Shown here piece after piece: positions 4,931 through 16,404 of a DNA stretch of 27,578 nucleotides. The DNA lies in IMG/VR virus record IMGVR_UViG_3300037045_000191, positions 1-27,578 of that record; one strand, written 5' to 3'. The position numbers and the translations under genes were made by a program. Numbering within the stretch: the stretch's first letter is position 1; each line of letters opens with the position of its first letter. The notes under the pieces were generated by a model. That model made no database searches. It was not told where the DNA came from and saw only the letters and a list, made by a program, of their open reading frames with translations. The stretch is from a virus. Taxonomy: Duplodnaviria > Caudoviricetes.

Positions 4931-5581
4931 TTAGGTTATATCAAATTCGGCACTCTCAACGCTTATGGCGTTAACGCTCCACTTAACAGTGTCAACGTAA
5001 CCCTCCACAAAATCGACCTTGAAAGCACTTTCGAAAAAGATGTCGTTAATGGACAAATCGTCAAAAATATCGCCTACGGCTTTGTAAACTCCGGGGTTGT
5101 CAAATATGCCGTGAACCTCACGAACCAAGTCGCCCGGGTACTGATGGTCTGCCACATCGACCAAAATGCCTTGCATGCTAATTCTATAGGCCCGGTTTCC
5201 AAAGTTCTCAATCATTTCGTGGCGTGAGCGGTCAATGGGAGTAACCACAACATGTTTATCGCGGGTAAACGAGACCATTGGCGGAGGCGCAAGAAAGCGT
5301 CTTATTGTTGGTCTCTGTGGAACAAAGGGAAGGGCAGGGATACCCGATTCAATCATATCAACCCCCCATGCGTAGGTATCGCCTGTTTCCCTATTTACAA
5401 AGTACATTTCAGCAAAGCGGCTATCTGCAGGTCGATAGGACGGCAACCTGAAAAAGTAAGGCAACAACTTTAGTGCAGCACCAAAAACTTGCGGAGCTAC
5501 GGTTCCGTAGCCAAAAGCGGCCACGTGCCTGTCCATAAGTTCGCGAGCTGAAATAAATGTTTTAGGTTGATTTGTTGCCAT
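4931..5581 (-). CDS. DUF6046-like tail tube initiator/hub-associated protein
   Basis: PMVSFTRDKHVVVTPI...IENFG...YRISMQGIL...QYP pattern; lies before hub gene. Confidence 0.65.
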   Translation of the reverse strand: MATNQPKTFISARELMDRHVAAFGYGTVAPQVFGAALKLLPYFFRLPSYRPADSRFAEMYFVNRETGDTYAWGVDMIESGIPALPFVPQRPTIRRFLAPPPMVSFTRDKHVVVTPIDRSRHEMIENFGNRAYRISMQGILVDVADHQYPGDLVREVHGIFDNPGVYKAVGDIFDDLSINDIFFESAFKVDFVEGYVDTVKWSVNAISVESAEFDIT

Positions 5582-6124
5582 ATCCTATAATTCCTACATC
5601 AGTTAACCACTTTAGCTGTTTCATTTTTTCAAACCATACATCATCGGGGAGTTTTTCCGGGAATGGTATGTGCATGAAGTATGAAAGTAGGGCGTCCCCT
5701 TGACGAACGTAGTTTGAAATCTCTCTCTTTTTGCTGTCCTCGTCATCTACGGTGTCAATTGGCGGGTAGCCCTCTATAAGTTTTTTATGACTGCCTTTTG
5801 AACTGGCAGTATCTCAGCAAGGGCGTTAAACGCAGCCAAGAATTTATCGTCGTTGGCCATAATGTCATCCTTGTGGGTGAGCAAACAGGCTTTCAAAATT
5901 ATCTCTTTGGCTTTGTCGGGCTTTTTGTCCAGCCATTTTTCGAACTCGGACATTTCAACACGTCCCGGCACGCGCATAACCACTTCAAATGGCTCAAAGG
6001 CTTCGTCATCGGACGTAAGCAGCGCAGCTTTAATTTTCTTTTCGCCAAAAGTGGCTTTCCAAGCAGCCAGCATTTCAGCGGTAACACCTGCAGGTAACTG
6101 AATTTCTAAGTTTTTCTTTGTCAT
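5562..6124 (-). CDS. Frameshifted tail assembly chaperone (gpGT-like, about 187 aa)
   Basis: -1 slip at AAAAAAC (5786..5780) opens 72 further codons LIEGYPPIDTVDDED...PEKLPDDVWFEKMKQLKWL...NKST, stop at 5562, filling the apparent gap. Confidence 0.8.
5774..6124 (-). CDS. Tail assembly chaperone (gpG-like)
   Basis: 116 aa directly after tube gene; ends on slippery A AAA AAC. Confidence 0.8.
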   Translation of the reverse strand: MTKKNLEIQLPAGVTAEMLAAWKATFGEKKIKAALLTSDDEAFEPFEVVMRVPGRVEMSEFEKWLDKKPDKAKEIILKACLLTHKDDIMANDDKFLAAFNALAEILPVQKAVIKNL

Positions 6125-10042: not shown

Positions 10043-11140
10043 TTACAATTCGGGCTCAACGCCATATTTTGCCTTGTACAAGGCTTTGAATTTTGCCGGG
10101 TCTTTTTTCGGCATAGCCTCCAATTCGGCACTGGCCTCGGTTTGGTATTTTTCCCAATCCCAGTCCTTACGGTCGTTGGTGTTGCCACCTTCGCCACCGT
10201 TGTTAATCTGGGATGTTACTGATTTGTATTCCCGCATGTCTGCGAAAATGGCATTCAGTTCGTCCAAGCCAATTTTGTTGCCACGTGCCACGTACTCGTC
10301 TCGCTTTTCTTTGGCGATTTTTCCAGCGGCAATAGCGGCATCAACAGAGGCTTCAATGCTTTTTTTCTGCGTATCGGCAAGTTTTGCCTCGGCAGACTCG
10401 CGTGCCGTTTTTTCAGCAGCAAGTTTAGCATCAATGGCAGCATATATCTGCTCGTCGGTGCTGGCTTCGGTAACGGTGGTTAAACCATACCGGGCAATAA
10501 GCTCTTTTTTGTTCATGTCCTGTATTTTTGTGATTTGTGCTGCGAAACGCTCATACACGCCTTTTGCGCCCAATGCCACGGCATCAGTCTTGTCAAGGGT
10601 TGTAATGTCTTTAACTTTTGGGGAAAATTTTGCATCTGCCAGACCGGCGGCAATGGCATCATCAGCATCGAACCAATTATCGCCTTTAAGCCATGCCTTT
10701 ACTTCATCCTCGGTTTTCTTAGTGCGCTCAACCAACTTTGCAACAAAGTTTTTCTCCATTTTGCGGAGCAAAGCGGCGTACTTTTCCAAGTCCTCGGAGG
10801 TTCCATCAGCACCACCTTGCGGGGCGTGAATCATAATAAAGGCATTCTCGGCGATGTGAATTCGATTACCGGCTAACATAATTATACTGCCCATACTGGC
10901 GGCAACACCGTCAATATAGACATCAATTTGACCTGCAAAACTGGCCAAAGCGTTGTAAATCATATTCCCGTCGAATACGTATCCGCCGTAAGTGTGCAAG
11001 TGAAAGTCGAGTTGTTTGTAACCGTCGTTGGTTATGTCGGCAATGGCCTGAGTTACGTTTCGGTAATCCAGGTACACGCCACCTACGTAACCGTAAATGG
11101 TCAAAACAGCTTTTCCTTTTTCCTTTTTAAGTAAAAACAT
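10043..11140 (-). CDS. ClpP-like head maturation protease fused to scaffold domain
   Basis: LTIYGYVG, HTYGG, IDGVAASMGS (Ser), IMIHAP (His), NWFDADDAIAAGLAD; helical Ala/Lys/Glu-rich C-terminus. Start revised to ATG 11140. Confidence 0.9.
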   Translation of the reverse strand: MFLLKKEKGKAVLTIYGYVGGVYLDYRNVTQAIADITNDGYKQLDFHLHTYGGYVFDGNMIYNALASFAGQIDVYIDGVAASMGSIIMLAGNRIHIAENAFIMIHAPQGGADGTSEDLEKYAALLRKMEKNFVAKLVERTKKTEDEVKAWLKGDNWFDADDAIAAGLADAKFSPKVKDITTLDKTDAVALGAKGVYERFAAQITKIQDMNKKELIARYGLTTVTEASTDEQIYAAIDAKLAAEKTARESAEAKLADTQKKSIEASVDAAIAAGKIAKEKRDEYVARGNKIGLDELNAIFADMREYKSVTSQINNGGEGGNTNDRKDWDWEKYQTEASAELEAMPKKDPAKFKALYKAKYGVEPEL

Positions 11141-11297
11141 GGTTTCGCGTTTTGTGCGTTTTGAAAGCACAATATTAGATTGTTTTGTTTCTAAAAACAA
11201 ACACAACTAACTGTATAACAGCGTTTTATATCGTACTGACATAAATATTATATTTTTTATTACGGAAACACGATTTTTGCCTTTTTACGGTGTAACA
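11141..11297. promoter_or_regulatory. Divergent late promoter region
   Basis: AT-rich gap between two divergent structural operons; imperfect -7 boxes TAATATTG (-, 11177..11170) and GATTTTTG (+, 11272-11279). Confidence 0.55.
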
Positions 11298-11795
11298 ATG
11301 GCAAAGGAAAAGGAAAAGCGCATCGCCCGAATTCTGTTCGTTGAACAGAACAAAGAGGCAAAAACAATCAGCGACCTCATTGGGGTGTCTGAACAAACCC
11401 TCAGTAAGTGGGTAAACCTAGGCAATTGGCGCGAGGAGAGAAACGCCCGATTGGCGAACCCTAGCGTTCGAATAGACAACATCCGTCAAATCATTAACGG
11501 CATGTCCGAAGAGCGCATTGAGTTGACAAATAGGATTAAACAAGCCGAATTACAAGGCGACCTCAAAGAAGCTTCTACACTTCGGTCACAGGTTGCACAC
11601 ATTGACGATGCCGTTGCAAAGTGGAACAAAACCATCGCTACTGTCAATAAAGAGAGCCAAATAACCCTTTCGAATTACCTGGTAGTTATGGAAATGATTT
11701 TCGAGGACTTAAGAAAGTTCGACGAAAAGTTATTTTTGAAAACCATCGACTTTCAGGAAAGGCATATAAACGACGTTTCATTACGATTTAAATAG
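11298..11795 (+). CDS. Terminase small subunit (N-terminal HTH)
   Basis: ARILFV...KTISDLIGVSEQTLSKWVNLGNW; precedes large terminase; ATG 11298 preferred. Confidence 0.8.
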   Translation: MAKEKEKRIARILFVEQNKEAKTISDLIGVSEQTLSKWVNLGNWREERNARLANPSVRIDNIRQIINGMSEERIELTNRIKQAELQGDLKEASTLRSQVAHIDDAVAKWNKTIATVNKESQITLSNYLVVMEMIFEDLRKFDEKLFLKTIDFQERHINDVSLRFK

Positions 11796-13321: not shown

Positions 13322-13759
13322 ATGGCATTTATTGTTGATAGCGATTACAGTGTTCAGCTGCGCACCGAAATAGGCAAGGTCATTGACCCAACCACGCAAC
13401 AAACCAAACTGAAACGAGCCGTTGATATGGCCATTTCGCAGGTAAAAAACTACCTTTCCGGCAGATACGACCTGGCAAAGATATTTGTTGATGCCCCCAG
13501 CGAAGGCGAAACCGACGAACGTGACAGTTTCGTGGTTATGATAGTCATTGACATGGCGTTGTACCACCTGTGGAGCAAAGAGGGCGCAAACAACATCCCA
13601 ACCACACGCGCCGACAGATACAACGATGCCCTTGAATGGCTGAAAGCCGTCCAAAAAGGGGCAGATACCAACCTGCCACTAATTACCGACGATAACGGCG
13701 GTGAGTTGGTTGATATGAGAATTTGGAGCAAACATTCACCCGAAAATAACCGTTTTTAA
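13322..13759 (+). CDS. Head-tail adaptor (Mu gp36/DUF1320-like)
   Basis: NYLSGRYDL, DMALYHL, RYNDALEWLKAV; ATG 13322. Confidence 0.88.
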   Translation: MAFIVDSDYSVQLRTEIGKVIDPTTQQTKLKRAVDMAISQVKNYLSGRYDLAKIFVDAPSEGETDERDSFVVMIVIDMALYHLWSKEGANNIPTTRADRYNDALEWLKAVQKGADTNLPLITDDNGGELVDMRIWSKHSPENNRF

Positions 13760-15000
13760 TGGATACCATAACAACCAAATCATACCTGTGGGGCATGATT
13801 CGCAACGAAACAAAAGCCCCTAAAATCAGCAAGACTGACAAACACGTCATAACTCAGTTGGTTACCGAGTTTCAAGACCGGAGCAGAAGCGACATTGTAA
13901 AATGGCGGGAGGCTTTGGAAGCTGCCGAGAATCCTGAAAACCCACGCTGGGTGCTGTTACAGGACTTGCTGGAAAATTTGATGACCGACGGTCACTTAAT
14001 GGCGGTCATAGACATTCGAAAGGCTGCTGTACTGAGTAATCGATTTTATGTCGAGGATGCCAACGGCACTGAAAACGACGAAGCAACAAAACTCCTTAAA
14101 ACCAAGTGGTTTTACAATCTTTTAGATGTTATGCTAGATAGTGTATATCTGAAATACTCGGTGGTAGAACTGGTTGACCCTCTAACCATGACATTCAAGG
14201 CGGTACCCCGCAGAAATGTTTGCCCGCAATTGGAGCGAATTTACCTTGAAGTGTTTGGAGATAAGTTTGTTTGGTACAAAGACCCCTATTTTGCCAACAA
14301 TGTTTTGGCGGTACAAAGCAACTCGAAGTTTGGCATCTTGAACGATATCGTTCCGCAATTAATCTGGAAGCGAAACGCCCAACAAACATGGGCTGATTTT
14401 TCTGAAAAGTTTGGAATACCATTAGTTACCGCCGAGACATTCACCACCGACAAAAAGAAGCTGGATTTGATTGAAACCATGCTCCGAAACTTGGGGCAGG
14501 CGGCACAGGCTGTGTTACCCGAGGGCACGAAAATAACTATACACGACGCATCAACGAAAGGCGACCCACACAACGTGTTTAGTGAGCAAATTAAGGTTAC
14601 CAACGGCGAAATATCCGAGAGAATTGTTGGCGGTACGATGATAACCAGCGACGGAAGTTCCCGAAGCCAAAGCGAGGTGCACGAGCGAACCCTCGACTAT
14701 AAATTAGCCGAGAACGACCGCAGAATGATTGAATTTGTGGTTAACGATGACCTTTTCCCCATTTTACGCGCCAATGGAATTAAATTGGCCGATACCGACC
14801 GCTTTGTCTTCGACCGCACCGAGGACTTAAGCCTTACACAACACTGGTCGATAGTGCAGGGCATTATGTCCGACTACGAAGTTGACCAGGATTGGCTTAG
14901 CCGTACCTTCAACATTCCCATAATTGGCAAAAAAGCACTAACAGGCAGCCCATTGTTGCCAAACACCGGCGGAAAAGCCTTAACCAAAAATTTTCGGTAG
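13759..15000 (+). CDS. Portal protein (Mu gp29/DUF935-like)
   Basis: DGHLMAVIDIRK, WADFSEKFGIP, GSSRSQSEVHE motifs. Confidence 0.92.
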   Translation: MDTITTKSYLWGMIRNETKAPKISKTDKHVITQLVTEFQDRSRSDIVKWREALEAAENPENPRWVLLQDLLENLMTDGHLMAVIDIRKAAVLSNRFYVEDANGTENDEATKLLKTKWFYNLLDVMLDSVYLKYSVVELVDPLTMTFKAVPRRNVCPQLERIYLEVFGDKFVWYKDPYFANNVLAVQSNSKFGILNDIVPQLIWKRNAQQTWADFSEKFGIPLVTAETFTTDKKKLDLIETMLRNLGQAAQAVLPEGTKITIHDASTKGDPHNVFSEQIKVTNGEISERIVGGTMITSDGSSRSQSEVHERTLDYKLAENDRRMIEFVVNDDLFPILRANGIKLADTDRFVFDRTEDLSLTQHWSIVQGIMSDYEVDQDWLSRTFNIPIIGKKALTGSPLLPNTGGKALTKNFR

Positions 15001-15029
15001 GGGTCAGTCCACAGGGCTGCGCTGACCCC
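14988..15029 (+). promoter_or_regulatory. Putative -1 ribosomal frameshift signal (portal to MuF)
   Basis: In-frame heptamer A AAT TTT (14988-14994), 5-nt spacer, 8-bp stem GGGGTCAG (15000-15007)/CTGACCCC (15022-15029); -1 frame is continuous with MuF. Confidence 0.72.
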
Positions 15030-16334
15030 GACATATTGCCCGAATTCTATGCCGATACCTGCCCGCATTGTGGCGACAAACACCCAACGGCAGTATCAAC
15101 ACTGCCCGATGGTTTGCCGTCCAAAATAACGCGCGAAATTGCCCGAATTGTCGCCGATGTTTACAACGGAAACGTTGGCAAAGAAAACATAGACTATCGA
15201 TTGTTAAAGTTGGTAGGAAATGCCGTTGAAAGTGCCATGATTGACGGCTTTGGAAAGTCATTTGCAACCGTTGACTGGACAACTCCCGATGGCGAAATGC
15301 TTATGCGCCTTACCCGCGATTGTTGGAACTTTTCAGCAGCCAAAAATTACACCCAACTGCGCGACATGACACTGGCGTTGGTTGACGAAAAGGGCAAAGC
15401 GCGAACATTCAGCGAGTTTAAGGACGCTTGCAAAGTAATTGACGAAAAGCACCTGAATTGGCTTAAAACGGAATACGACCAAGCAATTGGAGCGTCAACC
15501 ATGGCGGCACGCTGGGCAGACTACCAGAAAAATGCCGACATAATGCCCTGGTTAAAGTACAGCACCGTAGGAGACCAAAACGTAAGGGAGGAGCACGCTC
15601 TTTTAGACGGCATTATTAAGAAAATAACCGACGAATTTTGGGACATATATTTCCCCCCAAATGGTTGGAAATGCCGCTGCAGTGCCGACCAAATGTCAAC
15701 ATCCCTATCACGGGAAACCGAAAACGTGCCGTCGGTTACCATTCCGGACATGTTTAGGACGAATTTGGCAAAAACGGGACTTGCTTTCCCGCCAAAACAT
15801 CCTTATTACGATATAATTCCAAAAGAAATCCTCAGAGGTGTACCTTTTAGATTACCCGAAAAGGAGGCTTTTAAAGAACTGTATAGGAACGAGAATACGG
15901 GTGGTTATGTAAGGATGCACATCATGCATGGTTTGAGCGAGTACCAGGAGAATTACACCACCGCTAAGATACTTGCCGACAGAGGTGATAAAATAAAATT
16001 ATTACCAATACTGAAAACCGACGAGGAGCGAAAATTATTTTATGGAAATCAACCATTTATATCAGGGAAAAACCCTGACTGCTTTTTAAATGGGGCGTTG
16101 TACGAGATAAAAAGCATAGAAAACGCCACACGTAAGAAGTTGCAAAAGAAACTTATGGAAGGTCGAGAACAGGCGGCAAACGTAATTATGCATCTTACTA
16201 ATGGGGCAGATGATAATTTAGTGTACAGGGCGATTAATGGTATTTTTAATCAATCAAAACACGTTAATAACGTAATCATAATCAACAATCTTGATTATAA
16301 AATAATGAAAAACCCCAACTACGTGAGCAATTGA
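14994..16334 (+). CDS. MuF (Mu gp30/SPP1 gp7-like) head protein with C-terminal PD-(D/E)XK nuclease (CdiA-CT-like) domain
   Basis: WLKTEYDQA, YSTVGDQNVREEH, FWDIYFPPNGWKCRCS; tip has KNPDCFLNGALYEIKS. Only a TTG (15036) is available near the 5' end; first ATG is at residue 68 of the called ORF. Confidence 0.88.
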   Translation, partial: SVGVSPQGCADPDILPEFYADTCPHCGDKHPTAVSTLPDGLPSKITREIARIVADVYNGNVGKENIDYRLLKLVGNAVESAMIDGFGKSFATVDWTTPDGEMLMRLTRDCWNFSAAKNYTQLRDMTLALVDEKGKARTFSEFKDACKVIDEKHLNWLKTEYDQAIGASTMAARWADYQKNADIMPWLKYSTVGDQNVREEHALLDGIIKKITDEFWDIYFPPNGWKCRCSADQMSTSLSRETENVPSVTIPDMFRTNLAKTGLAFPPKHPYYDIIPKEILRGVPFRLPEKEAFKELYRNENTGGYVRMHIMHGLSEYQENYTTAKILADRGDKIKLLPILKTDEERKLFYGNQPFISGKNPDCFLNGALYEIKSIENATRKKLQKKLMEGREQAANVIMHLTNGADDNLVYRAINGIFNQSKHVNNVIIINNLDYKIMKNPNYVSN

Positions 16335-16372
16335 GGTTTTTGGCTTCCTAGGGACGTATCCCATGGAACACC
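16305..16372 (-). ncRNA. Putative small structured antisense RNA at the MuF 3' end
   Basis: Promoter directly upstream; hairpin GGTGTTCCATGGGA-TACG-TCCCTAGGAAGCC (16372..16342), then terminator-like hairpin with U-tract (16341..16308). Confidence 0.5.
16308..16341. terminator. Bidirectional terminator-like hairpin over MuF stop
   Basis: AAAAACCCCAACT...AATTGAGGTTTTT, with T5 on each strand. Confidence 0.6.
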
Positions 16373-16373
16373 A

Positions 16374-16404
16374 CAAAGATACAACATTAAAATACAAAAG
16401 TCAA
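16374..16404 (-). promoter_or_regulatory. Bacteroidota housekeeping-sigma promoter, antisense
   Basis: TTG (16404..16402)-N20-TATCTTTG (16381..16374) fits TTG-N19-21-TAnnTTTG. Confidence 0.65.

Follow-up and report, generated by a model that had tools for sequence, protein, structure and literature searches.

A probable programmed −1 frameshift between the portal and MuF-nuclease genes of a Mu-like phage

How is a phage head protein produced when its reading frame opens inside the preceding gene and offers its first ATG far downstream? This question is raised by the portal gene and the MuF-nuclease frame behind it in a linear virus record of 27,578 bases (hereafter the window, meaning the whole stretch analysed), whose gene set is of the Mu-like transposable phage type and whose named relatives are from Bacteroidota. 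A first-pass annotation, made from the sequence alone, had proposed that a −1 ribosomal frameshift at the portal end joins the two. We find that a heptamer and a hairpin at the portal end very probably act as a programmed −1 frameshift signal, judging from comparative sequence data. The proposal that the locus makes both a portal and an 858-amino acid (aa) fusion is strongly supported by the fixed phase, the constraint on synonymous positions, the covarying stem, the absence of a conserved MuF start and the existence of natural in-frame fusions. The elements concerned are as follows.

13759..15000, plus strand: Mu-type portal gene (DUF935/Portal_Mu), zero-frame product of 413 aa (Pfam PF06074, E 5e-65; phrog_113 portal)
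14988..14994, plus strand: slippery heptamer A AAT TTT at portal Asn411-Phe412 (from the sequence; 59 of 65 −1-frame representatives have a canonical heptamer in this position)
14995..14999, plus strand: spacer of 5 nucleotides (nt); the zero-frame stop TAG occupies 14998-15000, and its G is the first base of the stem
15000..15029, plus strand: 3' stem-loop, predicted frameshift stimulator, in which 15000-15008 pairs with 15021-15029 (from folding and covariation)
14988..16334, plus strand: −1 frame, encoding a flexible CxxC linker (~35 aa), the MuF domain and a C-terminal domain of CdiA_C type, likely a nuclease
15036..15038, plus strand: TTG, the rival independent MuF start, unconserved in a start census of 65 representatives

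Anatomy and conservation of the junction

The portal open reading frame (ORF) ends ACC AAA AAT TTT CGG TAG, with the heptamer A AAT TTT in X XXY YYZ phase. The stem has nine base pairs (bp), namely the eight named in the first-pass annotation and one U-G pair. The −1 frame is open from 14901 to 16334 and has Pfam matches to Phage_Mu_F (PF04233, E 2.5e-14) and CdiA_C (E 2.1e-8); a slip would add 446 aa and give the portal-MuF fusion of 858 aa. Four common start codons, TTG at 15036, 15114, 15201 and 15210, lie in frame before the first ATG (15237), which is residue 68 counting from TTG 15036. This TTG is placed 6 nt past the stem, in a G+C-rich upstream context that differs from that of most other starts in the window. 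Every detail of the earlier description (heptamer, phase, spacer, stem, open −1 frame, TTG, first ATG and fusion length) was recovered in the sequence. The window contains 38 in-phase heptamers in 35 genes (7861 codons), and only the one at 14988 lies at the end of its gene, has a stem of at least 6 bp at +5 to +7 and leads into a long, open −1 frame.

For comparison, 240 relative loci were fetched as the best 80 per collection out of 412, 180 and 503 confirmed matches, a choice that leans to close relatives, and locus counts are not counts of independent events. With the window this made 241 loci, of which 226 have a complete portal end and a MuF match. The 15 dropped before counting comprise seven that are cut off or broken before the portal end (hidden Markov model end <390, or stopless), or eight counting L229, which has an early stop; four too near a contig end for a MuF match, with the heptamer present; and three that are complete and MuF-less (L061, L096 and L231). 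MuF lies in −1 relative to the portal in 152 of the 226 loci, is fused in frame in 56, lies in +1 in 17 and is in the zero frame in one, which has a downstream insertion or deletion (indel). Dereplication at 80% portal identity left 117 representatives (65 with MuF in −1, 45 fused in frame and seven in +1).

A canonical heptamer stands exactly one codon (3 nt) before the stop in 59 of the 65 −1-frame representatives, as A AAT TTT (40), A AAT TTC (9), T TTT TTC (9) or G GGT TTT (1). Among the rest, four keep a U_UU.Y tetramer together with the stem and two have an A9 run further upstream; U_UU.Y ends all 63 stem-type sites. These heptamer and tetramer variants fit the rules reported for E. coli, where heptamers of the form H_HH.U_UU.Y slip efficiently and a U_UU.Y tetramer is functional when a stimulator is present (PMC4066793; the papers cited here were available in part, and statements about them refer to those parts). 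Where the site encodes Asn-Phe, Asn is AAT in 49 of 49 cases, compared with 46% AAT in portal bodies, and the upstream codon ends in A in 49 of 49, across codons for Ala, Glu, Lys, Ser, Arg, Gln, Thr and Gly. As a control, the heptamer form occurs in one of 46 Asn-Phe pairs of portal bodies. Because AAT preceded by an A-ending codon is fixed at the sites and rare in portal bodies, the constraint acts on nucleotides. The stop and the base after it read TAGG or TAAG in 63 of the 65 representatives.

The stem is conserved as well. A helix of at least five pairs starting 5-6 nt past the heptamer is found in 54 of 63 representatives. When 42 of these 63 sequences, picked for similar stem length, are aligned, eight of nine pairs have two-sided changes; these fill 70 cells, compared with 26.6 in shuffled alignments, a value that none of 500 shuffles reached and that, with a shuffle that ignores relatedness, counts as support and not as a probability. 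Controls with the pairing slid along the alignment gave at most 38 cells. In the distant Hankyphage group, MuF is in −1 in 80 of 81 loci, and each listed junction variant combines T TTT TTC with a GC stem after a spacer of 6 nt. Conserved heptamer, covarying stem and fixed −1 phase, which the first-pass annotation had suggested seeking in related junctions, are thus all found among the relatives.

In-frame fusions and the layouts of the junction

Natural in-frame portal-MuF fusions, suggested at the same time as a further check, occur in 45 of the 117 representatives, and 43 of these keep a slip signal. Fifteen have a heptamer and stem from which a −1 slip would run into a stop, and 28 have an A9-11 run; the other two fusions (L055 and L067) have no clear slip signal. 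A AAT TTT is retained at the corresponding Asn-Phe codons in 13 of the 45, followed by a stem at about +5 or +6. In 12 of these the next codon begins with AA, so that a −1 slip meets TAA at once; in the remaining one the stop comes 13 codons on. The stems of all 13 inverted junctions beat synonymous-codon shuffles (z −0.7 to −6.2, mean −2.3), and other Asn-Phe pairs in ORFs of the inverted type have the heptamer in one of 26 cases. In two more fusions the signal is A AAA AAG or G GGA AAG, and a −1 stop comes no more than six codons later. Folding gave a strong stem for the G GGA AAG fusion; in the A AAA AAG fusion the stem lies outside the part that was folded and was recognised by visual inspection. 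T TTT TTC and a stem are present in an annotated fusion of a Porphyromonas phage.

In-frame portal-MuF-nuclease genes with heptamer and stem are encoded at L006, L012, L014, L015, L018, L020, L030, L069, L079, L119, L122, L170, L238 and L243. A −1 slip in these genes would give a short portal; databases list the long product only.

The A9-11 runs lie at the portal end of 28 fused representatives without a strong stem (mean fold of 50 nt −4.6 kcal/mol, versus −16.3 for the stem type). They are also present in three out-of-frame representatives and in the isolates fF4 and Peternella_1. In the bodies of the portal and MuF genes of 28 loci classed as A-run, 63 kb in total, there is no A9+ run. Because the runs sit at the junction and are absent from these bodies, transcriptional slippage is probably used in the family.

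Sequence comparison suggests that 43 of the 45 fused genes could make a short portal too, and some relatives appear to run the switch backwards. Short portal and long fusion seem to be made by three routes from one junction, in a manner resembling dnaX. The family-wide point appears to be that both products come from one junction; low copy is not a family rule, because the long form is the zero-frame product in 43 of the 45 fused relatives.

The portal tree requires 12 changes between short-default and long-default junctions, and in the MuF tree type A occupies one side of a single branch (one change, support 96); both trees are from FastTree only, and long branches are unsure. The tails follow this split: the 57 type-A loci have CdiA_C, LPD3 or unassigned tails and none has PBECR2, which is found in 48 of 48 other loci. 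Two broader interpretations were considered and rejected. Many independent polarity flips are not needed, since the MuF tree requires one change, with recombination at the junction accounting for the portal tree. Selection of polarity by toxin type was discarded since the split between CdiA_C or other tails and PBECR2 is one event in the sample. The several portal-tree changes are best read as cassette exchange.

Expression of MuF and alternative explanations

Tandem slippage on a heptamer followed by a 3' stem is an established model. In the window phage, most ribosomes would release the 413-aa portal. A fraction, paused by the hairpin with AAU in the P site and UUU in the A site, would slip at Asn411-Phe412 as both transfer RNAs (tRNAs) re-pair one base back, and would complete an 858-aa portal-linker-MuF-nuclease chain. 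The portal C-terminus faces the head interior. The fusion would join the ring beside plain subunits via its N-terminal part, and MuF would enter the head on a covalent, flexible tether; it is plausible that the fusion is built into the portal ring. The long form is probably the minority product in the window phage, although this status and the fixing of stoichiometry, both stated in the first-pass annotation, are points that we infer only. In particles of Hankyphage, mass spectrometry of the 250-85 kDa slice gave 20 peptides of the portal and three of MuF, and the small proteins Gam and head-tail adaptor were detected in the slice too (PMC12135933, S6 Table).

The main alternative is a free MuF protein, translated from TTG 15036 or some other weak start through reinitiation or translational coupling; in this case the hairpin would keep the rate low and the heptamer would do no more than reflect a conserved Asn-Phe end of the portal. 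Separate MuF genes with their own ATG do exist, in phage lotta8 and in some relatives. In six +1-frame representatives that lack a slip signal, an ATG lies 65-74 nt before the portal stop in six of six, which shows what independent MuF initiation looks like among these phages. Among the 65 −1-frame representatives, an ATG precedes the Tyr..Cys motif in 13; 18 have no ATG, GTG or TTG anywhere before the MuF domain, and in 24 of 48 there is no upstream start before CxxC. Bacteroidota largely do without Shine-Dalgarno sequences, and the absence of such a sequence was not used as evidence. The first-pass annotation had allowed for variable offsets together with a conserved MuF start; we found a fixed phase and no conserved start codon. 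A conserved protein motif, moreover, cannot fix silent positions (AAT and the A-ending codon, each 49 of 49) or account for the swap to Phe-Phe at T TTT TTC, and heptamer and stem persist in in-frame fusions, where reinitiation is needless. A separate MuF in the window phage is therefore very unlikely.

Several observations nevertheless weigh against frameshifting, as does the lean of the sample noted above. Compared with shuffles, the window hairpin alone is modestly significant (z −2.4 at best, for 41 nt, and −0.2 to −1.5 for longer pieces), and one of the 63 representatives (L036) has no stem at the junction. Some ATG, GTG or TTG precedes the Tyr..Cys motif in 37 of 65 representatives, and in Hankyphage p00 an annotated ATG, missing in more diverged members, overlaps the portal stop. 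In the model of MuF (predicted local distance difference test, pLDDT, 88; residues 1-35 below 50, the rest about 90; a single-sequence fold with pLDDT 35 was discarded), a start at ATG 15237 would drop two confidently modelled helices (43-59 and 70-88), and TTG 15036, upstream of all well-modelled structure, would yield a MuF that retains it. The structure is compatible with a separate start, because the TTG start keeps all modelled helices. Six relatives encode MuF separately, and two complete portals (L061 and L096) have no MuF match within ~3 kb downstream; the fusion is not universal for these two reasons. Finally, slippage rules from E. coli may not hold for Bacteroidota ribosomes.

RNA-polymerase slippage, in which an extra base added to the mRNA on the A5T4 run of the window would create the fusion, is slightly less likely still than a separate MuF. 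It draws on the A9-11 runs, without strong stem, of the 28 fused and three out-of-frame representatives described above. However, 31 other representatives have nine or more A/T in a row at the junction and the window has only A5T4, whereas efficient slippage is reported to take a run of nine (PMC5009743). The codon phase does not vary, and the 3' stem would not yet be transcribed when the polymerase is on the run. An assembly error or a decayed fusion gene is scarcely credible. The window is a linear metagenomic virus record, and two single relatives (L098 and L196) carry indels downstream of an intact signal, but −1 phase and signal are alike in 143 of the 152 −1-frame loci. Contigs of four of four runs, two of which may be the window's own source, match the window across the junction without any substitution or indel. 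At the level of contigs, as opposed to raw reads, the assembly indel considered in the first-pass annotation was thus not seen. Programmed −1 ribosomal frameshifting remains the explanation that we prefer.

Separate MuF genes starting ~22-25 codons inside the portal gene were observed at L063, L064, L075-L077, L080, L081, L213, L217, L222, L230, L232 and L233. Their N-terminus, M..IP.KK, resembles the portal tail, as if a duplication had split a fusion.

The nuclease domain, a candidate small RNA and known systems

The C-terminal domain is likely a nuclease, as suggested by sequence and a structure model. Its only significant Foldseek match is the CdiA-CT toxin 4g6v_A (E 2.7e-4), and a sequence search of the domain against solved structures gave nothing meaningful. 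Of the 57 type-A loci, 41 have a CdiA_C match, and 36 of these keep a PD..(D/E)xK-like motif; in the window the PD..ExK-like motif is intact. Linker residues Cys25 and Cys28 are conserved in at least 90% of 43 aligned CdiA_C-like MuFs. Both the linker CxxC (14988-15070) and a CxC in the MuF domain (~15672-15680) are conserved, and a shared zinc site is possible; the linker is not placed by the model. Two further features bear on function.

16300..16381, minus strand: candidate small RNA convergent with, and behind, the nuclease gene, ends approximate (promoter-like box, hairpins, covariation)
10043-11206: ClpP-like prohead protease

No immunity ORF lies behind MuF, where a gap of 74 nt after the end of the MuF ORF (16334) leads to the tape measure gene. 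The place of an immunity gene is taken by a candidate small RNA gene, with a minus-strand promoter-like box (16374-16381), a UNCG hairpin and a terminator-like hairpin that overlaps the MuF 3' end (fold z −5.2). The box, TAnnTTTG, which we take to be the Bacteroidota promoter consensus, lies within 200 nt on the minus strand of all 57 type-A loci and of 41 of the 48 others; control stretches contain it in 7 (of 57) and 8 cases, respectively. Three of four pairs in the small hairpin next to the box covary (30 sequences), and Rfam gave no match in the window. In L118 the RNA appears tRNA-like with a T-loop, and in L007, L027 and L049 it seems to resemble the sarcin-ricin-loop motif, likenesses that we presume from general knowledge; such forms hint at substrate decoys or an RNA antitoxin.

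A possible function, put forward tentatively, is that of an active antibacterial or anti-defence ribonuclease. It would be released from the fusion by a protease, such as the ClpP-like prohead protease, and leave the head along with the DNA, and in the producing cell the convergent small RNA would restrain it. The CdiA_C matches and motif, the CdiA-CT fold match, the predicted flexibility of the linker, the conserved candidate RNA gene and the established existence of MuF toxins (PMC5576092, PMC11699363) are in favour. On the other side, an immunity ORF is missing, unlike in described MuF toxins, and in Mu itself the PBECR domain of MuF is inactive (PMC5512222). Alternatively, the domain may serve a purely structural purpose in the head or bind nucleic acid there. 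Delivery to the host would need cleavage, because the domain is tethered to the portal. The earlier wording of a toxin at the DNA exit goes beyond what we infer from fold and motif, which support a nuclease only. Rather improbable as a whole is a scheme in which a reversible recoding switch doses the portal ring with tethered nucleases, a protease frees them and the small RNA is the antitoxin; here the −1 slip would set how many of the twelve subunits carry MuF-nuclease, and freed nuclease would be ejected with the DNA.

As to gene order, minus-strand head protease, capsid and tail genes (10043-11795) stand back to back with the terminase-portal-MuF-tape measure block, and Hankyphage has the same split layout.

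If the frameshift is real, the portal, the most conserved structural protein of tailed phages, joins the known targets of recoding. Annotation would be corrected in a widespread group of phages, the common gut Hankyphage among them, where MuF is now given spurious starts and fused genes lack their short product. It would also give a concrete answer to how low-copy MuF is placed and counted at the portal. One junction with three layouts is a natural experiment on ribosomal and polymerase slippage replacing each other, a swap that is directly testable in cultured phage.

The first-pass annotation knew of no described recoding event at this junction, and we found none at a portal gene in the literature searched, which left subscription papers and most supplements outside. 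In the available parts of PMC10367356, PMC8008677, PMC8776804, PMC3711429, PMC12135933, PMC5576092, PMC11699363, PMC5512222, PMC4066793 and PMC5009743 there is no link between portal and frameshift, and the GenBank records that were examined annotate no slippage. Portal-MuF-PBECR fusions have already been published as plain, static fusions (Iyer et al. 2017, PMC5512222), in the available main text of which the word frameshift is absent; phrog_35074 likewise spans portal and MuF domains. Their domain architecture is that of the product predicted here. In contrast, 43 of the 45 fused representatives in our sample keep a slip signal for the short portal, which is new here.

In described MuF polymorphic toxins, muf lies right behind the portal gene and the C-terminal toxin-like domain is variable (Jamet et al. 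2017, PMC5576092). SPP1 gp7 binds the portal non-covalently in one to two copies (PMC5576092), and Bxa is a described MuF toxin (PMC11699363). They exist as free proteins that are translated from a start of their own, with an immunity gene beside them, whereas the window MuF has no conserved start or immunity ORF and a predicted covalent tether.

The lambda G/GT −1 frameshift and the capsid and tail extensions of T3, T7, A2 and PSA produce a minority C-terminal extension in a set ratio (PMC5009743), a review whose available part does not mention the portal. Both lambda G/GT and the junction described here have a slippery heptamer at the end of a morphogenesis gene. In the window, however, the portal is the target, and the extension amounts to an entire head protein that includes an enzyme domain. 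The window phage likely has an ordinary G/GT-type frameshift too, as predicted from sequence: the likely tail assembly chaperone (5774-6124, minus strand, and 5581-5774) ends in A AAA AAC, and the −1 frame is open for 74 codons.

The E. coli dnaX gene has an upstream Shine-Dalgarno stimulator. From dnaX (tau/gamma), one short and one long product are made, depending on the lineage, through a −1 slip to a stop, reversed polarity or polymerase slippage on a run of nine (PMC5009743), and the portal-MuF junction shows the same three layouts. Whereas dnaX is a chromosomal replication gene with products at ~1:1, the portal-MuF products belong to a ring of the virion.

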